From NCBI GenBank assembly GCA_964188305.1, contig OZ076892.1: a stretch of 64,000 nucleotides of DNA. One strand, written 5' to 3'. A program made the translations under genes and the position numbers. Positions 7,726 through 46,784 of the stretch are shown piece by piece. The first letter of the stretch is position 1; the number at the start of each line of letters is the position of its first letter. Source of the DNA: Podarcis bocagei. Lineage: Eukaryota. The notes beneath the pieces were generated by a model. The model saw nothing but the letters and a program-made list of their open reading frames with translations. It was not told where the DNA came from and did no database searches.

Positions 7726-9470
7726 GGGAATATGGGCTGGGTGCATTTTTCACAATGGGAAGATGAGTAGTGAATAGTGCCCCTCCCTGCCTTTTAATAA
7801 ACGATGGGTGGATGAATGAAAGGAGAAATGGAAGGAATTGCGTTTAAAAGGGACAGGCTGAAACAGGGGAGGGAGAAGAGGTGCTTAAAGGTGAGGGTTC
7901 CTTTTGGGGGGTGTTCTTATTGGTTCTCCCAGAAGGGGAAGACTCTAAAATATGTAGGAAAATCTCTGCCTTACCTCTCCCCACCCCCACCATTGCCCTC
8001 TTTCTCCTGACTGGTTGTGATGCATCTGTTAAATTGGTGGGTGAGTGGGAGCTCTGTAGCAAGGTAGTACATGTTGTTGGAGTGCAAAAAGCAGGATGGA
8101 GAGGAATTGGGAGAAGTGGGGGGGGGAGAGAAGCAAATATGAAGGCGCTCACACATTCCCCCCCTCATGTTTGCAACCCTTCCAAGTCTTCCCTTCTGTA
8201 TCCATAGATGTATCCATAGATGATGATGGAAGACGGGGAGCCAAGCTACTCTGAAAGGGGTCATGGGCAAAATTTCCGCTTCTCTAAAACTGTAAATGGA
8301 CAAAGTTGAGGAATGGTGGGGGTTGTAGTTCAACAACATCTGGAGGGCCACCACTGCTTTAAAGGGGCAGAGGGACCCCTGGTATGATATTCCATTGTAT
8401 TCCTGTGGCCCTAGAAGTTTCTGAACCACAACTCACATCATCCCTGGTCATTGGCATGATGGCTGGAACTGAAGGGGGTTGGTATTGACATCTGAAGGAC
8501 CACTAGTTCCCAGTTCCTGCTCTAGTCATTGAGATCACTGAAATGACCACTGAATGATGGATGGGTATGGCCAATGACTTGATAATACTCCGGAATAGTG
8601 ACTTACATTCCTATGGCTCGTGTTTGCACAATAGAATACAGCTAGCAGATACAAAGCACCAGAGAAGCCCAGAACACCGCAGTTGTAAGCTGATGTCTGT
8701 TGATGTTTCGATAGCAACACAAGCAGTGGGGTATAGAACCACAAATGGGGAGGGGGCTGCGAGAGGGAACAGGATGATCAAGTGTCGTGCCTTGTCTCAC
8801 CATGTTGCAATCCAAAGTTGTCTTTTGCCTCTGGCTAAGAGACCAAGGGTGGGAATAATAAACACTGGGAGAGTTTGGAAGCTTTTCTGACAATTATCTT
8901 TGTCATTCTATTGGCCCTGGCGGTAGTTCGGTGCTCCGAGATTTCACTTTGTTCTCATTCTGGCTGGTGAAAGCAATCAGACAGCACATTCAAAATATAC
9001 AGAGGCAGGGCTCATTCCATTCCTGATGTAATGCCATTGGCATCCCCTGAGCTTACAATGGGATGAATTTGGCCTAGGCCTTGAACAGGACACAAACTGT
9101 CAGAAAGACAAACCTCTGTCTCTCCCTATTTGAAATGTGCAACGGAAAGAAGAATGCCCTAAATATTTTAGCAGGTTTGTAATTTCAGAGGCAGCATACA
9201 GGATATCCCTCCCTCCATCTGTCTTTTTCTTCTTCTTCTTCTCTTTCTTAAGTAAAGAGAAAAGTTACCTTAGGACTTGTATATGGAAAGAAACTCTCCC
9301 CATAGCTTTCCATTTCTTGTCTGTTTAAGCTTGTAAATAAATTTGAAAGATAGTATTCTAAGCTACCTTGAAATTATCAGCTGCATGAGTGTATGTCACA
9401 GCATTTAAATATTTTTAGGGATTGTCATTGTCTTTAAATGTTTTTAGATGCTCTTAATCAGTTTTATATG

Positions 9471-9920
9471 TGTCAGGGAACTGCCATCAGAACAGGGGTG
9501 GGAAACAGAGGGGCAGTTGTGTTACAGGGAGCCTCCAAAAATCTTGCGAAGCAGTTCCTCTTCCGGTGATGAGGAAAACCCCACCTCCAGTGGGGAAGAG
9601 GGGAAAGGACCAGTGGATGCTGGTAGGAGCCTCAACACCGCTCCTGGCAAAGCTGGCCAGGAGCGAAGCATGCCCCTTCCATTGCCCACCCTGCGCATAA
9701 GTCTAAAGTGCAAAGAGGGAAGGAAAAGGCTGGGCGTAGTGAGACTTTTATGCTGGGGGAAGTCCAGGAAACAAGCACTCCCGGATTCTGCTAGCGATTG
9801 AAGCAGACATGAACTTTGGGGTTCTGCACTGTACATAGTTTTGCACCTAAATAAAACCTGTAAAAGACAGGTCAGAGTCCTGCCTGGTTACTCATGAGCA
9901 ACCACCTTTGCCATCTGACA
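9471..9920 (+). mobile_element. Solo LTR of a Gypsy/chromovirus family related to the element at 39946
   Basis: TG..CA ends, a perfect 5-bp TSD ATATG (9466-9470 / 9921-9925), a start TGTCAGGGAACTGCCATCAGA identical to the full-length LTR, and AATAAA near 9850. Confidence 0.92.
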
Positions 9921-11129
9921 ATATGTTTTAAATTATGTTTTGTCTTATTTTTCATCGTACTGCTTTATTACTTTGTTGTTTGCTACTCCGGGGTCCTTTG
10001 GAAGGAAAAGGCAGGATGTGGGTGTGGTTTGTAAACCACGTCATGGCCAAAGTGGTGTACAAGATAAAAATAGGATAAAACACAAAAAACCCAGTTTCCA
10101 AAAGCAATAAAATCATTTCTGATATTGATAATAATAATTAGTAGTCTAAATATGATTACTAATAATATATGCTTCCAATAGCAAAGCACTCTCTTGCTCT
10201 CTCTCATAAACATTTTCAAGATTGTGACTTCTAAAAATCCAATGGGACACAAGGAAAAATATAAACTTTCTCAATATGCAACTTCAGGGTAAAGAGAATA
10301 GAACAGAGATGCATGTCACAAGATATGGGTTTAAAGTATGACCACTTAATTGATGAAACTTATGATCTGCTTAGGGAAACCAGTGCACATGAAATAAATT
10401 TCAATAGCCCCTGAAGTCTGCTATAAATGGGTGAGCCTACCCCACAGGCAGGGAAGGTAATTGTTATGCCACCTATGCCTCTACGTTGAGGGATAGAATT
10501 CTTAAAACTATATTATTTTCTGGAGGGGTTGTCAAGTAATCTTGTAATTACTGTGCCGATTCTGAATGTAGCCGAGGAGAATTCACCCATCAATTTTCCG
10601 CATGAAAATCAATTGCAGATCTGATTCAGCAGCAGCCCGTCAAGATTCCTCCAAAACAAACCGCCAAGTAAGTAACATGCATTGCTAAACATGGACGAAA
10701 AGTAAAGCTTTTTTAAAAAGAAAAAGAAAGAAAAACAGAAATATTTATCAAGGATCTGGAGCCCTGGTGCAATCTGCTGAGTAAATATTTATAAAGGGGT
10801 GCGGGTGGAGAATACTAGCAACAAATTCCTTTAAGTATTCCAGTATTGTACAATGGGAGTTGGAATGAACAGCTAGTGTTTGGGAAAAATTATGCCTGCT
10901 TGTAATAACTAGCCAAATACATACTTTAGAAGTACACATATATGTCTTCATGGCAAGGCTCCGAGTCAAAGGCCTTATTAAAAGTTCACGGAGTGTCATA
11001 TTTATAGAAGTTTAATCGCCCTAAGAAAATACAGAAGCAATTTAAGCAGTAGGATTAGCATTCACCTGAAGACACGAAAGGGGCAAGCCCACATTGCGAA
11101 TGATGCTTCTGGGTACAGTTCAAGGCCTT

Positions 11130-12374: not shown

Positions 12375-13082
12375 CCGTATTTTTCGCCCTATAGGATGCA
12401 CTTTTTCCCCTCCAAAAATGAAGGGGAAATCTGGGTGCGTCCTATGGGGCGAATGCAGGCTTTTGCTGAAGCTTGGAGAGCGAGAGGGGTCGGTGCGCAC
12501 CGACCCCTCTCGCTCTCCAGGCTTCAGGAACACATCCGCAGCCTAGGCAGCCCTACGGGAGGTCCGGCAGGGATGTCTAGGCTGCAGATAGCAGCCTGCT
12601 GCCCAGCGCAAGGGGCGCCCTGAAGCAGAGCGCCCCTGCGCCAGGCAGACATCCGCAGCGTGGGGAGCCTTGCAGGAATTCCCTGCAAGGCTCCCCACGC
12701 TGCGGATAGCAGCCTGCCGCCCGGCGGGCGGGGCGCCCTGAAGCAGAGTGCCCCCCGCGCCAGGCAGACATCCGCAGTGTGGGGAGCCTTGCAGGAGTTC
12801 CCCGCAGGGCTCCCCACGCTGCGGATAGCAGCCTGCCGCCCCACGGGGGGGGCACCCTGATGCAGAGTGCCCCTCGCGCCGGGCAGACATGGGCCAGCCC
12901 CACAAGCTCGGGGGACAGCAGGGAGGCGCAGCGCCGCCATCCCGCTGTTCCTCGACCTGGTTCTGTTTCCCCGACCTGCTTTTGGGGGGGAAATAAAGGG
13001 AATTTTTTCCCCCTTTATTCCCCCCCCCAAAAAACTAGGTGTGTCCTATGGGACAGAGCGTCCTATGGGACGAAAAATACGG
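12375..13082. mobile_element. Tc2/pogo-like non-autonomous DNA transposon with internal GC-rich tandem hairpin units
   Basis: TIRs CCGTATTTTTCGCCCTATAGGA / TCCTATGGGACGAAAAATACGG with TA on both flanks; internal repeats of about 119 bp. Confidence 0.88.
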
Positions 13083-22646: not shown

Positions 22647-22782
22647 TTTCAGTGTATCTGAAGAAGTGTGCATGCACACGAAAGCTCATACCAAGAACTA
22701 ACTTAGTTGGTCTTTAAGGTGCTACTGGAAGGAATTTTTTTATTTTGACTATGGCAGACCAACACGGCTACCTATCTGTAAC
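22647..22782 (+). mobile_element. Penelope-like element (PLE) terminal fragment with a minimal hammerhead ribozyme motif
   Basis: GTAT-CTGAAGA-A-GTGTG(CATG)CACAC-GAAA-GC-TC-ATAC at 22654-22691; a near-identical inverted copy lies at 23833-23956. Confidence 0.75.
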
Positions 22783-23832
22783 AGGTAGAAGCTGTTATTC
22801 CCAAAAGATCAGGAGGGCACCACGTTGGCTATCTTTGTTTTAGGTAAAAGAGCTTTATATTGGTCCAAGCTTCAGTTTCTGGTTTTCTTATGGGTGCTCT
22901 CAGGCTCCGATCCTATGCACACTTACCTGGGAATAAATTCCAATGAATTCAGTGACACTTGGCTCTGAGCAGACATTCAATATTAATCTGCTATAATAAT
23001 CTGGTGTTTAAAAAACTGTATGCATACCATTCAGCAGCATCTGTGGCCCTCCAGATGTTGCTGGAAAAAGATTTTAACCTCCCTCTAGAAGCTTTCAGGG
23101 TGCTGGGGAGAGAGATGAGAATATATACATATAACTTTTTATCAGGCATGCTGTAAACAGCATGCAGCCCTGGAAACAGTCAGGCGATCTGATCAGAAGC
23201 ACCATGGTGTTGAGCATCCCAGCGTTTGCACATTAGTCTTGGGACTACCTATTTATTTCCAATGACTTGCTAGGAAATCACCCTGAAGAGTTTTTTTTAA
23301 GTGGAACATGCCAGGTATGGAGCCAGAAAGCCTTTGAATAAATTCACAAAGGTTTTTTTTAAAAAAAAGGAATTTGGCACAAAGCGACACAAATCTCCTT
23401 TAAAAATATGTATGCAGACAAACCCCTGCCTTGCTGATAGAATAAATTTTGCTAGTTTTTGTTGCTTTCTTTTGCATCGCAAATAGGGAGGGGAAACAGA
23501 AACGGACAGTGATAGGTATTGACATGCTGCCCTCAAGCTCCGGAAATCTTATTCTGCCTCAGGTTGGCATGCCAGCCTATTGACAAGTCCATTGATAGCA
23601 TTTTGTCAAATATCTCCTGAAGCCAGGAATGCTACTGTGTACCTTTCATTTAATTGTACTGTCCTAAATATATATATATAACAACAATGGCAAGAACAAG
23701 GGTTTCTTGCTCCTTCAGCCCTGCAAGAGTTGGGGGGCAAACTTAGCAGCCTAACAGAGTTTCTCCTCTTTGCTACCTCCTAGAATTGTAGTCAGCTCCA
23801 AACAGGAAGAAAAACCCAGGAAGGCAGTAGTA

Positions 23833-23956
23833 GATAGGTAGCCGTGTTGGTCTGCCATAGTCAAAATAAAAATTTTTTTCCTTCCAGTAGCACCTTAAAG
23901 ACCAACTAAGTTAGTTCTTGGTATGAGCTTTCGTGTGCATGCACACTTCTTCAGAT
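23833..23956 (-). mobile_element. Penelope-like element terminal fragment with hammerhead core (second copy)
   Basis: Reverse complement of about 22656-22780; it breaks off within ribozyme stem I. Confidence 0.75.
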
Positions 23957-24306
23957 CCAGGAAGGCAGTACTGTCTGGAATTGGGGCTAAGAACCTCCTG
24001 TTTGGGAGCTTCAGGCCTCCTGGTCTGGCCTGGACACTCCCCACTAGCCCTACTTTGCACATGAAGTGTTTGCCTGGTTGGAATTTGCCATTGGATTCTG
24101 AGAACTACTCTTGTTTCTTTGTGTGAATGGAGGCTACAGAGGGGTGTGTGTGTGTGTGTGTAGAAACTAGCCTATTGTTATACTTGCATTCATTGCTCCA
24201 TCCACTTTTGCCTTTTGCCCTGCCCACCACTGGCATGTGGCCTCCATAAGGTTACTGAGGAGGAAATGTGGCCCACAGAATGAATATGTTCCACCATCCC
24301 TGGTCC

Positions 24307-28884: not shown

Positions 28885-30976
28885 CCTGAGACTTCCGGGG
28901 TGGCGCCATCGTCAATGGCGGACTCCCTCTGAACTGGAGGGACTAGCTCTGCATGAAACGGGTCTTTTCCGCTACAGCGAAGCGGGGACCCAGCTAAAAA
29001 TCACAGGCGGATGAAGCCTGTGACCATGGGACTCGGCGGGCACCCTTAGCGCCCCCCCAACCCGCAAAGGAACCCACTAACGGGCTCCGAAGTGAAGAGG
29101 GGGAAGTGGCGCGGTGCTGTGAGTCAACTGCTATTTTCGTGGAGCGAAGCCGCACAGCCGTTGCCGGAGAGCACTGCCTTTTTCCTGGGACAATTTGGCT
29201 TCTAAAATAAGCACCCGTGAGTACTTAAACTTTGAACAATCGGACTTTAAATAAGGACTTGCGAAAAGAAAGGAATTGGACTTAAAAATTTATGTTAATT
29301 TGGTACTGAAACGGGAAGGTCTAAACAGGAAGTCAGCCTTCCGTTTCTTTGTAGACAGAATAAAGCAAAGGCAACATAAACTAGAGCTCAGAAAATCGCT
29401 TCTAAAGGATTGGCTTTCATCATTTAAAACTGTTGAACCCCCCTTCGGTAGCAGGAGAAGAAGGGGGATCTTTTTTGGACTGTTTAAACCTGCAGAAGTG
29501 AGTTTAAAGCAAAGTAACTTTCCACCGTCCTGATCCTGGAGCGGGGTGTCAGGACTGACGTTTTGAAGCTCATTGACCAGAGACAAACGTTTTTGACAGA
29601 TAGTTAAAGGAGGAGAAACATAGTGATTCCATTGCTTCCTTTCGCACTTTAAAGGAACAAATATTGACAAAATATCTCAAAAAAGATACTTTGTTGCAAG
29701 AACAAATAGAAGTTCTCCCCCTAGAGGGAGACTATGAAACTGTAACTAATTTCAGGGAGCTTGCAGCTGCCTCAGATTACAATCGTGGGAAAGGACTTGT
29801 GACCTTGTGGGACAATGTATCCAGAGGCTCTGCTGTGTGCTCTCTGTAAAACAAGTACCCTACTGGAACAGTTAAGTGAGAAGATGGAATTGATGACTAA
29901 TGCGGCCAGAATTTTTGAACAGGCAGTGGGAAACTATGTGGAGCCCACCCAGGAATTAGATCAGGAGTGTGTCCTGACAGAGCTGATGAGAGAAGAGGAT
30001 GTTGCCGAATCTTGGGCGCCAGAGATGGAGGGAGCTGCGGCCTTGCAGGAACAAGAGTTTTTGGACTTGACAAATGAACTTGGAAAAAGCCAGATTTGGA
30101 AAGATAAAGTTTGGATTGGTTTGGAAATGGGGGGTTGGATAGACCCCCCTATGCAGGGATGTTTGGACTTTCCGAGTCTGGCAATGGGCCGTGAGATGCT
30201 AGGAGCTGTGGGGGCTCTCAATTTTGGAGGGATTCTGAAATATCTTCTTAAATACCACATGGAGTTGAGTCTGGACTATGGAAAAGGGGCTGATTTGTTG
30301 AAAAGGGTCAAAAACATCATCAAGCTGGAGTTCCCACGAGTGAAAGGAGAATATGAAGAAGAGCTGCGGAAGGGACATGGAAGAGATTTAAGGGCCTCGG
30401 ATGTAAGGTTGCCAGGTTAATGCGCCAGATTGATGGGATAAAAAGGACTGACAAAACCCGGGACCAGGAGGAAGGGACGCTGGATGAAGATTGGATTGTT
30501 TTTATTTCTTTTTTTATTATCAGGATTGTTTTATAAAATTGATGAATGTTAGAAAAATGTTGGAATTAAATCATTTGGCTCTAGCAAAAATGTTTAAAGA
30601 ATTAGGCAAGAATATTATGGTTGTGAGAAGTTGGTAAAAATAAGATTTAAGTTTTAAGGTTTTAAGGTTTTCTATAAGATAAGATGAAAATAGATTAAGA
30701 TAATGTAATGACAGAATACTATGAAATATGGAAAGGATTTGCTGCATAATTAATAACCAGGATACAAAAAAAGGGAGAAGGAGGAGGTCAAAGAAAGAAG
30801 GTAATGAGACTTGAGGATTTGAGAATGATGGATTTATTTTTGTTGGTCTGCGGTGTATTTTTGTTTTTTTAATGTGGTTTTTTTCCTTAGTTTTTTCTAT
30901 TTTCCTTTTCTGCTTTGTTTTTTCTTTGCAATTTCAAAATTTTTAATAAATATCATATTAAAAATAAAAATAAAAA
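28885..30976 (+). mobile_element. 2.1-kb non-autonomous L1-like retroposed element
   Basis: TSD AAAAGTTATTAGAAAACCCC (28865-28884 / 30978-30997); CpG-rich 5' end starting GAGACTTCCGG; AATAAA at 30945-30950 then an (AAAAAT)n tail; no RT. It interrupts an older repeat related to 49540-49760. Confidence 0.85.
29815..30420 (+). CDS. Hypothetical 201-aa acidic ORF inside the retroposed element
   Basis: ATG-initiated, sense to the element, and the longest listed ORF outside the Gypsy element. No recognisable domain; the N-terminus looks helical. Confidence 0.35.
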   Translation: MYPEALLCALCKTSTLLEQLSEKMELMTNAARIFEQAVGNYVEPTQELDQECVLTELMREEDVAESWAPEMEGAAALQEQEFLDLTNELGKSQIWKDKVWIGLEMGGWIDPPMQGCLDFPSLAMGREMLGAVGALNFGGILKYLLKYHMELSLDYGKGADLLKRVKNIIKLEFPRVKGEYEEELRKGHGRDLRASDVRLPG

Positions 30977-38113: not shown

Positions 38114-39725
38114 CCACCAGGAAGCCGGACCGCTTGCTTATAGGGTAACCAAACTAATGAGACATGAATGCAAGTCTAAACATTTTGTTCAGTTAGAAGA
38201 GGCCAGGAAGGCTGCAAGCATCCAGAAGTCACATACGCCCAAGGTCAAGTGTCTAAAGCAGTTTAATCCAGCCCCTGTGGCAGTTTATTTCCTGGGGTAA
38301 AAATCCTTTAAAAAAGCTCAACAACTTCAGCCCTTCACTTCATCAAATCTGGACCTCTTTGAAAAGAGTTTGGACACCACTGGTCTAAAGTCTGCATATA
38401 TTTTGATGCTCTTGAAATCCTGCCCTTGAAACCTTACCAAAAAGTATTCCTCCTGATGTGAGGCAAGGCCATTAAGTGTTGCCACTTTGTGCAGTGGGAG
38501 AAAAGGAATCCCACCTAATACCAAACATACCAAACATCTTACACTTCCTCTAACAAAAAAAAAAAAAAAAAGCACCTCATCTGCTAGTTGTTCCCTTCAC
38601 TCTTGGGGCCATAAATGTGTCAGTTGTTGAAAAGATGTGAATGTCCTTATAAATGTATATAGGAGATAAGGCAGCTTGTAAAGGGTTTGGGTTCATGAAC
38701 TGTGTTGTTATATCACCCATTGTTTTGCTCTCATGAATAATGGATTCTTTTCCTTCCTGTACACATATTTCAATCAGATACCAGTTAAATTGGGATCAGG
38801 CGGCTTTGGGGAGCAGTGGGGTGGGGGGAGGTACTAAGTACTTTAGTTTAAACAAAAGCTGAAGTTTCAATAGGAGCACAACGTAAGTGCCAAGACTGTA
38901 CAACAGAAAACAGAAGCTTTTTGATGGGCATAATAGACTGATGGATATGCACAGGGATCCACAATTCTGCTTGTCATGTGCACCATGGCAAGTATTGCAA
39001 TACCCCCTATTGCAATAAACATAGGATCATGGAGTTGGACCGGACCTTGGATGCCATCTAGTCTAATGAAGGAGCCACAATGTGGGATGCAGCTACAGCA
39101 TCCCTGAGAGATGACTGTCGAGCTGCTCCTTAAATATTTCTGGCAAACCCTTTATAAGCTGCCTTATGTCCCATAGACATTTATAAGGACATTCATGTCT
39201 TTTCAACAAGATGTTGGTTAGAGGAAGTGTAAGATGCTTGGTAATAGGTGGGACTCCTTTTCTCCTGCTGTACGTAGTGGCAACACTTAATGGCCTTGCC
39301 TCGCATCAAAATGTTTAGACTTACAGTGGTGCCCCGCAAGACGAATGCCTCGCAAGACGGAAAACTCGCTAGACAAAAGAGTTTTCCGTTTTGGAGGTGC
39401 TTCGCAAAACGAATCTCCTATGGGCTTGCTTCGCAAGACGACAATGTCTTGCGAGTTCCTGCTGGTTTTTTCCCCTCCCCCCCTTTTCTAAGCCGCTAAG
39501 CCGCTTATCAGCTGATCCGATCAGCAGATAAGCCGCTAAAAGCCTCTAATAGCGCTAATAGCACTAATCCGCTAATCCTTCAATGGGCTTGCTTCGCAAG
39601 ACGAAAAAAACCGCTAGACGAAGAGAATTACAGAACGGATTCTTTTCGTCTTGCGAGGCACCACTGTACATTCATGTCTCATTAGTTTGGTTACCCTATA
39701 AGCAAGCCGACTGGCTTCCTGGTGG
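38114..39725. repeat. Long degenerate inverted repeat (possible foldback-type DNA element)
   Basis: 38114-38187 matches the reverse complement of 39669-39725 plus ~39306-39323; 38455-38555 matches 39215-39308; 38631-38689 matches 39144-39202. Confidence 0.75.
39324..39666. mobile_element. Tc1/mariner (Tigger-like) MITE
   Basis: TA-CAGTGGTGCCCCGCAAGACGAA ... TTCGTCTTGCGAGGCACCACTG-TA, with internal repeats of CGCAAGACG. Confidence 0.88.
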
Positions 39726-39945: not shown

Positions 39946-40353
39946 TGTCAGGGAACTGCCATCAGAGCATCAGGTGGTGGAGGGACTCAGGCAGGATGAA
40001 AGAGACTCAACTGCTGAAGCAGGGACCAGCAGGGGGAGGAGTGGGTCTCTGAGGGAATGCGAGCAGGAGGGAGGGCTCAGGGAGGCTTCCAGCGAGAACA
40101 GTGGGGAGGTATCGGAGTCTCCCATAGGGAGACCCATACCTCGCAGGAAACTGTCACGCCGTGAGTCCAGGAGACGCGTTTCCGTTAAGGAACTTCTTTG
40201 TTGGAAACGCTTCCGCAGACAGCCACTGTCGGACTCTACTAGTGACTAGAGCAGACATGTCTGAGGAGCTCCGTCACACACGGAGGTTTGTGGGGGCGCA
40301 CAAACTCTGAGGGAGCACGTTTTCACGCACAAGCAGCTAATCAAACCCTCACA
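39946..40353 (+). repeat. 5' LTR
   Basis: TGTCAGGG...CCCTCACA; no differences from the 3' LTR seen by eye. Confidence 0.97.
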
Positions 40354-40355
40354 GC

Positions 40356-40366
40356 AGTCCGACAGT
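40356..40366 (+). promoter_or_regulatory. Self-priming primer-binding site
   Basis: AGTCCGACAGT, 2 nt after the LTR, is the exact reverse complement of LTR 40225-40235 (ACTGTCGGACT). There is no TGG tRNA-type PBS. Confidence 0.8.
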
Positions 40367-40398
40367 CTTTGTACGCTGCCTGTGCAAGAGAAGGCATC

Positions 40399-41412
40399 AT
40401 GAGCGAACCAACCGGAACCGGAGGAGCAGGGGCTGGAGCTGGTCCAAGCTTGGAAGATAGATACCGAGCGTTGGAGGTTCAACTGGCCCTGCAGACGGCG
40501 AGGCTGGAGGAGAGAAGGGCTCAGGATGCAGACAAGAAGGGGAGAGCCACTCAATTCCCCAGAAAGGTACCAGGATTGGTGCAGAAATTTGGGGGGGACC
40601 CCAAGGACTACCATGCTTTTAGGACAGAGATGCAATATGCCCTTAATGTGCAGTTCGATGAGTTCCCTGATGAGGAATCGCGAGTTGCTTTTGTAATTGG
40701 GCATCTTGAGAAAGGGGCTAGAGACTGGGTGCGACCCCTAATGGCAACGCACAATGACATACTAAAGGACACAATGAAGTTCTTTCGTGCAATGGATATC
40801 ATGTTTTCCAGCGATATTGAGGAAGGGGTGGTGCGCAGACAGCTAATGGCTTGTAAGCAGGGGAGTCGATCTGTCCGTGAATATTGGACTGAGTTTACCA
40901 TGCTGATTCACAGACTGAGTTGGGATTTATCGGCGGCACCCGTTCAAATGCTATTTGAAGAAGGTCTTTCTTCGGGGGTGAAAGACGAGCTGGCACGGAG
41001 CCCCAGGGCGGAGTCTATGGATCAGCTGACCAAATCTGCGCTGACCATAGGAGCGCGGCAGGAGGCAAGAGCCTTGGAGAGGCGGGAAGGGAGAGGGGAA
41101 CGTTGGAAGGAGTTCCGCATTCCAGACATTCCTGAGCCAGCTTTCCCGCCGGCAGAGCCGATGGAAATCGGAACAGCGCGCGCGCGCGCATTTTCAAAAA
41201 CCAGCGAGGGAGCTAAGAAGGAGGGAAAGGGCCCCCGGAAATGCTATCTCTGCCAACAGCCAGGCCACTTTGCCAGAGTCTGCCCCCAGAGGAAGGAATG
41301 GCAAGGGATGGTGGGAGCTGTTGAGGGGGGAGAAGAAGGGGGAGCGGAGCAGGTAAAAGCCAACGCCTGGTTGCCACAATTGGGGCACTGCAGCCAGGCC
41401 AAAGAGCAGTGA
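40399..41412 (+). CDS. gag: Gag (337 aa; PEG10/sushi-like capsid and CCHC zinc knuckle)
   Basis: First ATG after the LTR is at 40399; KFGGDP..F, ESRVAFVIGHLEKGARDW, QGSRSVREY, EPMEIG, CYLCQQPGHFARVC. Confidence 0.95.
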   Translation: MSEPTGTGGAGAGAGPSLEDRYRALEVQLALQTARLEERRAQDADKKGRATQFPRKVPGLVQKFGGDPKDYHAFRTEMQYALNVQFDEFPDEESRVAFVIGHLEKGARDWVRPLMATHNDILKDTMKFFRAMDIMFSSDIEEGVVRRQLMACKQGSRSVREYWTEFTMLIHRLSWDLSAAPVQMLFEEGLSSGVKDELARSPRAESMDQLTKSALTIGARQEARALERREGRGERWKEFRIPDIPEPAFPPAEPMEIGTARARAFSKTSEGAKKEGKGPRKCYLCQQPGHFARVCPQRKEWQGMVGAVEGGEEGGAEQVKANAWLPQLGHCSQAKEQ

Positions 41413-41420
41413 AAGTGCCC
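41352..41420 (+). promoter_or_regulatory. Putative -1 ribosomal frameshift signal (G GTA AAA plus H-type pseudoknot)
   Basis: Pol is in the -1 frame and open from 41352. After a 6-nt spacer, stem 1 pairs 41365-41374 with 41390-41399 and stem 2 pairs 41383-41389 with 41414-41420. Confidence 0.7.
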
Positions 41421-44400
41421 GTGCCAGAAGCTCCTCGACCTGCTCTAGTGATTGAAGTGTCGCTAGAGCTGCAGAATGGGCACCCCCTAAAAATAAAGGC
41501 GCTATTGGACTCAGGCAGCTCCTGCAATTTTATGAGCAAGGAGTTTGCTGCTGAACACCAGATACAGACCATCCCTTTAAGCAACCCCCTGCAGGTGACC
41601 ACGATTGATGGCAGGGAGTTGTTGGGAGGAGGAGTCCGCTTGCAGACTGTCCCAATGATAATGAGGGTGGCAAGGCACACAGAACTGATAGCGTTTAATG
41701 TGGCCACCCTGGGAGGCGCTCCCATTATTTTGGGAATGAGCTGGCTAGCTCTACATGATCCGCTGGTTGGCTGGCATCAAAGAGTGGTGTCCTTTGGTTC
41801 AGCACATTGCCTAGAACACTGCAAAGGGGAGAAGGGTTCAGTAGGGGCCCAAGCCACCCTAGCAGGGACTGAAGTAATGGGGAAGGTGAAGGTACCACCA
41901 CAGTATGCAGATCTCAGCGACGTGTTCAGCGAGAAGGAAGCTGACCAACTACCACCTCATAGACCCTTTGATTGTCAGATCAATTTACTCCCTGGAGCAC
42001 AGCTTCCCGTGGGCAAGTTGTATGCCATGTCAGACAGGGAAATGCAGGAGTTGCGAGGGTTTATTGACAAGAACCTGAAGAGAGGCTTCATCAGAGAGTC
42101 CAAAGCAGCAGGGGGGAGCCCAGTGTTCTTTGTGGACAAAAAAAATGCGGACAAGCCGAGACTTGTATGTGATTTTAGGCGGCTGAATGCAGTGACTGAA
42201 CCGGTGGCGTTCCCTATGCCCAGAATTGATGATATTTTGACCATGGTGAGGAAGGGAAAGATTTTCACAAAGCTGGATCTAAGGGGGGCGTACAACCTGA
42301 TACGCATAAGGAAAGGGGATGAATGGAAAACCACCATGTTTACCCCTTTGGGGGCGTTTGAATACCTCGTTATGCCATTTGGATTACAAGCAGGCTCCGC
42401 GTGTTTTCAATCTTTTATGAACCACGTGCTGGGCCCTTTGCTCTACAAGAATTGCGTTGCCTTTCTAGATGATGTGTTGGTGTATTCTGAGAATGAGGAG
42501 CAACATGTGAGAGACGTCAGAGAAGTGTTGAGCAGACTGCAAGCCAACAGGCTGTGGGTCAAACTGGAGAAGTGTCGGTTCCATACCAAGGAGGTGGAAT
42601 TCCTGGGGTACCGCCTGTCAGACAAGGGATTGGCCATGGATCCCGGCAAGGTACAGGCAGTGCTGGAATGGAAAACACCCAAAACCAAGAAGGATGTGCA
42701 GAGGTTCCTAGGGTTTGGAAACTTTTATCGTAAGTTCATCCGCAACTTCGCCCATCTGACGGCGCCCATCACTGACTGTCTCAGCAGTAAGAAGAAGTTT
42801 GTATGGACGGCGGAGGCGGGGCGAGCGTTTGAGGAACTGAAAAGGGCCTTCGCCTCTGAAGAACAACTTCTGCATGTGGATTTACGAAAGAAGCTAAGGG
42901 TTGAAACAGACGCATCTGACAGAGCCATAGGGGCGGTGCTTCTTCTGCAGCCGGGGAAGGAGGAGTCGGAGTGGCGTCCGTGTGCCTTCTTCTCGCGGAA
43001 GCTGAACAAATCCGAGAGGAACTACACGGTGTACGACCGAGAACTGCTTGCTATTCATGAGGCGTTCCGGAGATGGAGGCATCTGCTAGTTGGTGCACAA
43101 CATAAAGTGCAAGTGTGCACGGACCATAAAAATCTAGAGTACTGGAGAACGGCGCGAGTGCTCAACCAAAGGCAGTTGAGATGGGCCCAAGAGTTCTCCA
43201 AATTTAACTTTGAGATTTGTTATGTGCCAGGCCCAGAGAATGTTAGGGCGGACGCTCTCTCACGCAAGCCTGAATATTTGGAGGGGGAGGGAGCACCCGA
43301 AGAAACCCATATCATTCCAGAGGACCGCTGGGTGTGTGGGGCGACTTTGGTGGGGCAAAGGGAATTGGTAGAGGGTACGGTGCAGGATGCATACGCCCAG
43401 GGGAAACTCAGGGATCTCAGAGGGGAGGAAGACAAACCCGGTGGTTTTGAGGAGAGAAATGGGGCATTGTATTATAAGGGAGCGTTATATATACCTGAAG
43501 GGGAATTGAGGGAGAAAGTACTCAAGCAGCTGCACGATAGCCCCACAGCAGGGCACTTTGGGCAACACAAAACCATGTGGCTGGTTACCAGGGAATTTTG
43601 GTGGCCCAAGGTCAGGGAAGATGTGCGGGAGTATGTGAGAGGGTGTGAACAATGCCAAAGAGCCAAGGGGGAGAGGCAGGCGCCGGCTGGTTTATTAGAA
43701 CCACTGCCCACACCTGAGAGACCGTGGGAAGCAGTGGCAATAGATTTCATGACTGATCTGCCAAGGTCTAGAGGGAAAACAGCCATCATGGTTGTAGTAG
43801 ACCTGTTAACTAAAATGGCCCACTTCATAGCCTGCTCACATGCGGTTACAGCAGAAGAAACCGCCAAATTGTTTGTAGAGAATGTGTTTAGGTTGCATGG
43901 CGCCCCCTTGAGGGTGGTTTCAGACCGAGGGAAACAATTTACTTCCAGGTTCTGGAGGAAGCTCATGAGCTTACTGCATGTAGAGGTTAATTTCTCGACG
44001 GCCCGTCATCCTGAAACCAACGGGCAGGCGGAAAGAGCAAATGGGGTTCTCCAACAATATTTGAGGTGTTATGTTAATGACAGAGAGAATGATTGGGTGG
44101 AGAAGCTGGCGTTGGCAGAATTTGCCTACAACAATGCAGAGAACGTGTCCACGGGGATGAGCCCCTTTTTGGCTAATCACGGGTGCCATCCCAGAGCCTT
44201 CCCAGGGGGGGAGGGGGAGAACTGGAGCGTTCCAGCTGCAGAACAGTTCGTGGAAGAAATGGAAGCGATCCATCGCCAGCTCCAACTCAACTTAAACAGG
44301 GCTAAGGAGGAATATAAGAGGCAAGCAGACAAAAACAGAAGGGAAGGTGAAAGCATCAGGGTGGGGGACCAGGTGTGGCTGTCAACCCAAGGGTTGCCAT

Positions 44401-45311
44401 TCAAAGGAGGTTGTAAGAAATTAAGACCCAAAAGGCTGGGTCCGTTTGAAGTCATACAGCAGGTCAATCCAGTGGCTTTCAGGCTCCGGTTACCGAACCA
44501 CATGAAGCTGCACCCAGTTTTTCACAGGTCGTTGCTGTCACCGTATAGAGGAGACAGTGAGGGGAGGGTCACTAGGGGACCAGCAATGGAGGAGAAGGAA
44601 CACAGCTACCATGTAGCGGAGATCCTCGATTCCAGGTGGAAGGGAGATCAAGTAGAGTATTTGGTAATGTGGGAAGGGGAACCGGAGTCGGAAAACACCT
44701 GGGTTAGGGCAGAGGATGTCAATGACGAGGTTTTAATAGAGACTTTTCATCAGAGGTTCCCACGTAAACCTCAGCCTGTAGCGAGGTTCCGAAGGGAATA
44801 CTTTGCCACCACCGACGAGGAAGAGGAGTTGGAGGGGTTCCCAGATTCTGAAGAGGAGGAGGATTCAGCTGGCCAGGACGACGATCGATGGAGAGAATTG
44901 TTCGAGACGTCAGAAGATGAGGAAGATTCGTTTCGGGGTTTTAGCCCTTCACCTCCAAGGGGGGAGGAATTGGGAGGGGGTGAGGGGGGCCCTGGAGGGG
45001 AGGTGGATGTCAGGGAACTGCCATCAGAGCATCAGGTGGTGGAGGGACTCAGGCAGGATGAAAGAGACTCAACTGCTGAAGCAGGGACCAGCAGGGGGAG
45101 GAGTGGGTCTCTGAGGGAATGCGAGCAGGAGGGAGGGCTCAGGGAGGCTTCCAGCGAGAACAGTGGGGAGGTATCGGAGTCTCCCATAGGGAGACCCATA
45201 CCTCGCAGGAAACTGTCACGCCGTGAGTCCAGGAGACGCGTTTCCGTTAAGGAACTTCTTTGTTGGAAACGCTTCCGCAGACAGCCACTGTCGGACTCTA
45301 CTAGTGACTAG
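41352..45311 (+). CDS. pol: Pol polyprotein: protease, RT, RNase H, integrase, chromodomain and long C-terminal tail (probably made as Gag-Pol by frameshift)
   Basis: LLDSGS (protease); MPFGL and FLDDVLV (RT); ETDASD (RNase H); H..H..CEQC, IDF, SDRG and GQAER (integrase); LGPFEV (GPY/F); YHVAEILDSR..YLVMWEG..ENTW (chromodomain). Confidence 0.97.
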   Translation, partial: GKSQRLVATIGALQPGQRAVKVPVPEAPRPALVIEVSLELQNGHPLKIKALLDSGSSCNFMSKEFAAEHQIQTIPLSNPLQVTTIDGRELLGGGVRLQTVPMIMRVARHTELIAFNVATLGGAPIILGMSWLALHDPLVGWHQRVVSFGSAHCLEHCKGEKGSVGAQATLAGTEVMGKVKVPPQYADLSDVFSEKEADQLPPHRPFDCQINLLPGAQLPVGKLYAMSDREMQELRGFIDKNLKRGFIRESKAAGGSPVFFVDKKNADKPRLVCDFRRLNAVTEPVAFPMPRIDDILTMVRKGKIFTKLDLRGAYNLIRIRKGDEWKTTMFTPLGAFEYLVMPFGLQAGSACFQSFMNHVLGPLLYKNCVAFLDDVLVYSENEEQHVRDVREVLSRLQANRLWVKLEKCRFHTKEVEFLGYRLSDKGLAMDPGKVQAVLEWKTPKTKKDVQRFLGFGNFYRKFIRNFAHLTAPITDCLSSKKKFVWTAEAGRAFEELKRAFASEEQLLHVDLRKKLRVETDASDRAIGAVLLLQPGKEESEWRPCAFFSRKLNKSERNYTVYDRELLAIHEAFRRWRHLLVGAQHKVQVCTDHKNLEYWRTARVLNQRQLRWAQEFSKFNFEICYVPGPENVRADALSRKPEYLEGEGAPEETHIIPEDRWVCGATLVGQRELVEGTVQDAYAQGKLRDLRGEEDKPGGFEERNGALYYKGALYIPEGELREKVLKQLHDSPTAGHFGQHKTMWLVTREFWWPKVREDVREYVRGCEQCQRAKGERQAPAGLLEPLPTPERPWEAVAIDFMTDLPRSRGKTAIMVVVDLLTKMAHFIACSHAVTAEETAKLFVENVFRLHGAPLRVVSDRGKQFTSRFWRKLMSLLHVEVNFSTARHPETNGQAERANGVLQQYLRCYVNDRENDWVEKLALAEFAYNNAENVSTGMSPFLANHGCHPRAFPGGEGENWSVPAAEQFVEEMEAIHRQLQLNLNRAKEEYKRQADKNRREGESIRVGDQVWLSTQGLPFKGGCKKLRPKRLGPFEVIQQVNPVAFRLRLPNHMKLHPVFHRSLLSPYRGDSEGRVTRGPAMEEKEHSYHVAEILDSRWKGDQVEYLVMWEGEPESENTWVRAEDVNDEVLIETFHQRFPRKPQPVARFRREYFATTDEEEELEGFPDSEEEEDSAGQDDDRWRELFETSEDEEDSFRGFSPSPPRGEELGGGEGGPGGEVDVRELPSEHQVVEGLRQDERDSTAEAGTSRGRSGSLRECEQEGGLREASSENSGEVSESPIGRPIPRRKLSRRESRRRVSVKELLCWKRFRRQPLSDSTSD
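44994..45007 (+). other. Polypurine tract
   Basis: GGAGGGGAGGTGGA immediately before the 3' LTR. Confidence 0.75.
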
Positions 45312-45415
45312 AGCAGACATGTCTGAGGAGCTCCGTCACACACGGAGGTTTGTGGGGGCGCACAAACTCTGAGGGAGCACGTTTTCACGCACAAGCAGCT
45401 AATCAAACCCTCACA
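45008..45415 (+). repeat. 3' LTR (first 304 nt overlap pol)
   Basis: Direct repeat of 39946-40353. Confidence 0.97.
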
Positions 45416-46535: not shown

Positions 46536-46784
46536 TGCTTTCGTAGATTTTCACGGGTACAGGAATGCAGGTTTTGGTGTCTTCGGGTGTCTTCCCGTGT
46601 AAGAGTTGGGGTGTCTAGGCGACGTTTCGACGAGGTCTCACTCGTCATCTTCAGGCTGGTGCTTTCGGCTTCTTGTTCTTGGCTCTGTTCCAGTAACAAG
46701 AAGCCGAAAGCACCAGCCTGAAGATGACGAGTGAGACCTCGTCGAAACGTCGCCTAGACACCCCAACTCTTACACGGGAAGACA
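46536..46784. mobile_element. Penelope-like element terminus as a 90-bp perfect inverted repeat with hammerhead cores
   Basis: Arms 46588-46677 / 46695-46784; CTGAAGA-T-GACGAG(TGAGAC)CTCGTC-GAAA-CG-TC at 46718-46751 and its mirror; abuts (TA)n on the left. Confidence 0.72.

Follow-up and report, generated by a model that had tools for sequence, protein, structure and literature searches.

A solo long terminal repeat (LTR) from the lizard Podarcis bocagei carries a 109-codon open frame that is likely the fossil of a region encoding the C-terminal tail of a retrotransposon integrase, and the basic-LLCW-basic peptide at its end likely served nuclear import or chromatin docking. An intact relative lies in the same 64,000-nucleotide stretch of DNA (the window), and its pol frame runs in the same register into its 3' LTR. 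Comparison of the two LTRs argues strongly for protein-level selection on the terminal peptide, a selection which, as judged from the sequences, belongs to the past of the lineage rather than to the solo copy itself. The LTR U3, usually treated as non-coding regulatory DNA, would evolve here under protein constraint, and high-copy solo LTRs would preserve a record of it.

The solo LTR and an intact chromovirus in the window

The solo insertion has the following features:

9466..9470 (+): left target-site duplication, ATATG
9471..9920 (+): solo LTR of a high-copy family, 450 bp, TGTCA...TGACA ends
9472..9801 (+): 109-codon open frame and TGA in the pol register, likely fossil integrase-tail coding region
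9667..9801 (+): last 44 codons, homologous without gaps to the integrase C-terminus
9777..9787 (+): equivalent of the 11-nt self-primer and predicted transcription start, role assigned by alignment
9850..9855 (+): AATAAA, putative polyadenylation signal
9921..9925 (+): right target-site duplication, ATATG

The insertion begins with TG and ends with CA, has short inverted repeat ends and a target duplication, and is without an internal region; no pol or gag matches were found near it. Translation of 9472-9801 confirmed the 109 open codons from LTR base 2 that had been predicted originally. The peptide begins VRELPSE and finishes ...LLCWGKSRKQALPDSASD ahead of the TGA, its last part (9667..9801) running in order through a Pro-rich stretch, a basic stretch, LLCW (9745-9756), a second basic stretch, DSxSD and the stop. 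Pfam gave no match for this peptide. The AATAAA is missing from the LTR of the intact element, and 9777..9787 is identical to the self-primer of that element at 8/11 positions.

The intact element (39946-45415) is laid out as follows:

39946..40353 (+): 5' LTR of an intact Tf1/sushi-type chromovirus
40225..40235 (+): 11-nt self-primer, exactly complementary to the primer-binding site (PBS); genomic RNA predicted to begin here
40356..40366 (+): PBS, self-priming type
40399..41412 (+): gag (Retrotrans_gag, zf-CCHC; Pfam)
41325..45311 (+): pol, shifted -1 relative to gag, open across the polypurine tract and on into the 3' LTR
44607..44756 (+): chromodomain with Glu at the third aromatic cage position
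44784..44942 (+): two units, each with a short aromatic helix, an acidic Ser/Thr linker and (F/L)xGF, similar in sequence to TND-interacting motifs
44975..45007 (+): purine-rich tract with the in-frame reading GGEGGPGGEVD
45008..45415 (+): 3' LTR, in which 45009-45311 encode the last 100 Pol residues and the TAG stop

Both LTRs of this element are 408 bp long with 0/408 differences, and the target duplication is GAAGG. Pfam gave the pol domain order PR-RT-RNase H-IN-SH3-chromodomain-tail over 1328 codons; PR-RT-RH-IN followed by a C-terminal chromodomain marks a Ty3/Gypsy chromovirus, and a PBS with its complement in the 5' LTR of the same element marks the Tf1/sushi group, for which the available text of PMC6317226 and PMC4600332 gives such a complement as the self-priming signature. 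The exact 11-nt complement (~0.0006 expected by chance) lies at LTR position 280 and is paired in the MFE fold. Because the self-priming RNA fold overall has a z of -1.13, only the complement is counted as evidence for self-priming. The nearest sequences retrieved come from Podarcis muralis and share 93% identity over pol; the IN region is 38-41% identical to the more distant matches P0064, P0108 and P0120.

In the intact element, the pol frame crosses into the 3' LTR at its base 2, and 100 codons follow before the stop. As predicted, the solo and intact frames share one register, with 109 and 100 codons from LTR base 2. The openness of the solo frame alone is modest evidence for coding, because the same register was open in 2.0% of 20,000 dinucleotide shuffles and any plus frame in 5.8%, and chance alone gives a length difference divisible by 3 in one case out of three.

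In the intact element, pol thus continues across the polypurine tract into its 3' LTR and encodes the end of the integrase C-terminal tail there. The self-primer lies at LTR position 280, and the RNA is therefore predicted to start at this point, with the last 8 codons in R. With such a start, only the U3 of the 3' LTR would be translated, as the final part of Pol. Since no pol lies upstream of the solo copy, it would not be translated, and it is likely an untranslated fossil. No RNA record was listed for the solo LTR. The RNA reads on the tail of the intact element (158 and 147) were mostly <90% alike, came mostly from relatives and lay in both orientations; they showed no pile-up of read starts and did not place a start.

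Codon comparison of the shared terminal peptide

The middle of the solo LTR had been called unalignable. This holds only for approximately codons 8-65, where 1841/3000 shuffles scored equally well against the intact element, whereas the last 44 codons align gap-free and 0/3000 shuffles scored as well. The VRELPSE match at the other end is real, but it says nothing on protein selection because the first 21 nucleotides are identical, silent sites included.

Codons were compared from the stop backwards, at the same offset as that found by blastn. Of the 27 terminal codons, 14 encode the same residue in both LTRs, 10 of them by way of synonymous codons; synonymous pairs in the comparison include Arg AGG/CGC twice and Leu TTA/CTT, and third-position differences sit under Q, L, D, S and D. 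The stop codons stand at the same place, as TGA in the solo and TAG in the intact LTR. For the last 19, 27 and 44 codons pS/pN was 0.76/0.30, 0.70/0.36 and 0.68/0.44, and the synonymous excess had P values of 0.0019, 0.0006 and 0.0002 under a null model that places the same differences at random, ignores CpG context and was applied to a window chosen after the peptide had been seen. The last 9 codons alone gave no significant excess (P 0.16). Over all windows tested pS in the pol frame was 0.68-0.77, which is near saturation, against a pN of 0.15-0.44. In the two shifted plus frames pS was about equal to or below pN, and the reverse frames showed a smaller pS-pN gap, as expected where third positions coincide. 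The original prediction had named the comparison of synonymous with non-synonymous change as a check on its proposal that an LTR-encoded terminal motif is under selection; with an excess of synonymous change in the pol frame, and with the same motif at the end of two other integrases (described below), that proposal is supported.

Conservation might also act at the nucleotide level, through a core promoter near -30, the self-primer and the R region, which would make the peptide a passive by-product of read-through. LLCW indeed lies ~30 nt ahead of the predicted start, a position at which sequence could be constrained by a promoter element; solo-family contigs become similar at high depth again near 9776, at this start; and AGCAGACATG is identical right after the stop, as are the first 21 nt. 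A caveat of this kind had been attached to the last codons from the outset, and they do overlap the predicted start and self-primer; however, the synonymous excess survives their removal. Without the last 8 codons P was 0.0004 (36 codons upstream of the self-primer), without both self-primer and LLCW codons 0.009, and for the 26 codons upstream of LLCW 0.033. The self-primer position itself differs at 3/11 sites, 2/3 of them third positions and thus silent-site differences, the stop codons differ, and the shifted plus frames behave as given above. Nucleotide constraint alone fails as an explanation because the signal outlasts removal of the self-primer and LLCW codons, and we regard it as very unlikely; protein-level selection on the terminal peptide is held with high confidence.

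The AGCAGACATG stretch occupies 9802-9811 and 45312-45321, with the same letters directly 3' of the stop in both LTRs. An ATG within it opens a short frame before gag, a possible upstream ORF or R element.

Variants within each family were also scored. Among relatives of the intact LTR (reads and contigs), 9/13 variants in the last 39 codons and 2/6 in the spacer are synonymous, as counted in 40 of 195 rows. The solo-family frame has 18 non-synonymous and 4 synonymous variants and no stop (22 variants, from 40 of 121 rows). Because these listed variants look neutral, selection is shown for the lineage and not for the solo copy. Several of them are near-fixed against this copy and therefore reflect its private decay.

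Relatives with a terminal LLCW and the parent of the solo LTR

A first protein search returned 3 proteins, whose clusters contain 26 members, and phmmer gave 502 matches, mostly chromodomains among the 150 listed. A VDV(R/T)E anchor combined with a terminal LLCW was found in 17 retrieved proteins, most of them near-identical copies from the gene models of one species and hence not independent; in 16 the anchor is separated from the stop by 100-115 codons, and the remaining one is a truncated model. Two integrases are independent, P0029 (IN 77% identical) and P0052 (63%). Each has chromodomain and tail in one called protein and ends in basic-LLCW ~100 codons past the inferred LTR start, which for P0052 is placed from the protein only, and their tail middles are unrelated. 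The solo peptide aligned with the P0029 tail over 109 residues (E 3e-10), while in the P0052 tail only basic-LLCW is clearly shared (0/3000 shuffles score as well against the intact element, 23/3000 against the solo). Both the LTR ends and the terminal peptide of the solo LTR are homologous to those of the intact element, which places the two in the same lineage. The middle of the tail may be a free spacer, its ~100-codon length being set by U3.

A YREP and Ser/acidic stretch of the solo frame (9523-9558, +) resembles the spacer of P0052, a likeness that BLASTP did not recover and which 27/3000 shuffles and 0/139 control tails match in score; we note it as a weak lead. The same interval lies in the deepest-covered U3 bin among solo-family contigs.

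The solo family is high-copy, with 1058-1396 related contigs per run (4 runs) that have common ends and a variable middle, and with a depth of hundreds to thousands against ~10 in the flanks (X1 and X2). The junctions of this insertion are bridged, with at least 31 letters on both sides, by contigs of three organism labels (X10 on the left; X1 and X11 on the right), and the insertion is older than the intact element because contigs of at least three labels bridge them. The CpG o/e is 0.26 in the solo LTR versus 0.53 in the young intact LTR. One further copy of the family, in P0028, matches the frame over 83 residues and exits before LLCW.

A protein search for a solo-type pol gave 1 match among 251 candidates, a host gene model, and a larger one gave 6 matches among 7987 scored with no solo-type pol, in searches that are word-based and can miss relatives. 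Upstream of 9471 no parent sequence emerged, the loose ends of the contigs agreeing at 0.38-0.39, as for unrelated flanks. An exact 20-mer scan of viral contigs gave 0 matches; two exact 20-mer matches in metagenomes were rejected as chance since the matching stops at 21-22 nt and no pol lies close by.

It is nevertheless highly probable that the parent of the solo LTR had its pol in frame into the LTR. The family could be non-autonomous or long dead, with an inherited frame and an immediate parent that no longer translated it, a reading that would suit the high copy number, the failure of the searches to find pol, the neutral-looking variants and the low CpG o/e. It is rather improbable: the frame is open across the unalignable middle, the 22 listed variants include no stop, no indel row among those listed falls inside the LTR, and old coding families are also scarce in protein sets.

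It is extremely unlikely that the host has co-opted this solo copy as a translated exon or small protein. The Podarcis muralis gene models P0028 and P0181 do end in an LTR-derived peptide of such kind, and the insertion is common to at least three organism labels. However, the sole in-frame ATG (9670) is not found in relatives, an old solo LTR can remain open by chance, and among the 121 window frames of >=78 codons, a length below which short exons would escape, no host-gene Pfam match exceeded the cut-off. The LTR-derived C-termini cover residues 1007-1051 of P0181 and 233-320 of P0028, Podarcis muralis host gene models for a phospholipid-transporting ATPase and a SEC7-domain protein, respectively, and may reflect annotation artefact or exonisation. 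An LTR-encoded tail would account for LTR-derived C-termini in host gene models.

Predicted role of the tail and comparison with known systems

AlphaFold2 on 10 sequences folded the SH3 and chromodomain parts and gave a pLDDT <50 to residues 141-323 of 323, with a helix at 303-311 (VKELLCWKR, pLDDT ~35). The tail is hence predicted to be disordered with a short helix over VKELLCWKR. It is acidic first and then strongly basic, with 10-14 Lys+Arg in the last 32-36 residues. Searches of PDB sequences with the acidic tail and with a profile of the motif gave 0 matches, and the best score in an ESM Atlas search was 0.77, a lead at most. Judged by eye, no named motif class (RVxF, LxCxE, BET-binding) suits every family.

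From its sequence, an import or targeting role of the terminal peptide is moderately favoured. Selection for a role within the particle (integrase multimerisation, RNA/cDNA binding, a lipid attached to the Cys, or stability) is unlikely: the basic residues would fit nucleic-acid binding equally well, and no Pfam, PDB-sequence or ESM Atlas match points to a partner, but the motif ends a ~180-residue disordered tail beyond the chromodomain and sits where plant CRM elements have their targeting motif, as far as that motif is described in the available text of PMC3059260.

Whereas Group I chromodomains have a Y, W, Y cage, the intact element has Y, W, E, and the first cage residue is also lost in several relatives. 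Among 91 parsed proteins the third cage aromatic is present in 1/27 with acidic-FxGF tails, mostly of the lineage of the intact element and thus not independent, versus 7/8 with RGRP tails. Group II chromodomains, in which cage residues are lost, had been seen only in plants as of 2013, according to the available part of PMC3605345.

The FxGF units are kept in 9/9 family representatives examined, one or two in each. In the window family Leu or Met replaces the first Phe of the first unit. TND-interacting motifs, which bind LEDGF and HRP2, consist of a hydrophobic helix, an acidic Ser/Thr linker of 8-16 residues and FxGF, as described in the accessible portion of PMC9987994. The lizard units follow this pattern in sequence, with low-confidence helices, acidic linkers of 8 and 9 residues, and FxGF. 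The same helix-linker-FxGF order occurs in IWS1, JPO2, KMT2A and JIL-1, in the accessible portions of PMC9987994 and PMC6877644; those motifs belong to host proteins, whereas the lizard units lie upstream of the LTR and are known by sequence only. That the units bind a TND is possible, although not the favoured expectation.

The basic helix, perhaps with the two upstream FxGF units, may replace targeting by a chromodomain that has lost cage residues. A more elaborate version, in which motif mimicry took over from the chromodomain, with tandem FxGF addressing LEDGF/HRP2-type readers of active chromatin and the LTR-encoded basic-LLCW helix acting as a second import or nucleosome anchor, is doubtful. 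If correct, it would represent convergence on a lentiviral cofactor and an animal counterpart to the plant CR motif. Binding of LEDGF or HRP2 by the FxGF units would mean an independent origin of a lentivirus-like tether. The terminal peptide is a defined one with which to study nuclear entry and site choice by vertebrate Ty3/Gypsy integrases whose chromodomain cage is degenerate.

In group A of the plant CRM elements the CR targeting motif is encoded within the 3' LTR, and beet Bingo elements likewise show reading into the LTR, according to the available text of PMC3059260 and PMC3605345. As in CRM, pol of the intact element runs into the 3' LTR and a C-terminal motif is encoded there. Going by the same text, CRM elements are primed by tRNA-Met, whereas the lizard element has a self-type PBS; the CR motif replaces the chromodomain, whereas the lizard element keeps a degenerate one upstream of the polypurine tract. 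The lizard motif has no family match and is set apart from the CR motif by description rather than by sequence. The intact element thus works like the CRM arrangement yet is not a CRM member. The LTR-encoded integrase tail is an arrangement already known in plants, and the lizard variant appears new: no description of the lizard tail, the LLCW motif or FxGF in a retrotransposon integrase was found in the literature searched, although Repbase, Dfam, subscription papers and supplements may have it.

With the V-clade of Tf1/sushi (Sushi-ichi, Amn-ichi/ni/san), as covered in the available text of PMC6317226 and PMC3601003, the element has in common its order of domains, a chromodomain, a PBS of the self-priming kind and LTR ends that fit TGTYANR and ...ACA. 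Tails of the V-clade type are short, many with an RGRP stretch, and the cage is intact, whereas the lizard tail extends ~185 residues past the chromodomain, acidic then basic, with ~100 codons in U3/R. Among the search matches, 15/89 parsed tails end in SP(E/K/D/T/V)(Y/F), and 13/15 of these have GG-x-V 13-28 residues before the stop, in a survey of protein only that has one named species, Labeo rohita, and includes P0108. This suggests a short same-register LTR read-through in fish-type relatives, with a putative second, shorter LTR-encoded terminal motif.

The C-terminal signal of the Ty1 integrase is not known to be LTR-encoded. Like the lizard tail, the Ty1 integrase C-terminus combines a basic import signal with a short host-docking motif; Ty1 differs in belonging to the Ty1/copia superfamily and in having a known partner, AC40 (available text of PMC7459421 and 10.1101/2019.12.18.879569).

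Further features were observed elsewhere in the window. An uninterrupted 814-codon frame for a non-LTR-type reverse transcriptase (1-2442, -; RVT_1, E 1e-35) runs off the window start, and a 205-codon open frame at 29803-30420 (+) has no Pfam match. A GC-rich tandem unit of ~119 bp is present in three copies at 12564-12873. Nested or long inverted repeats with arms of 57-95 nt at 38114-39725, 46588-46784 and 22653-23959 are probably non-autonomous DNA transposons, one set lying directly upstream of the intact element.
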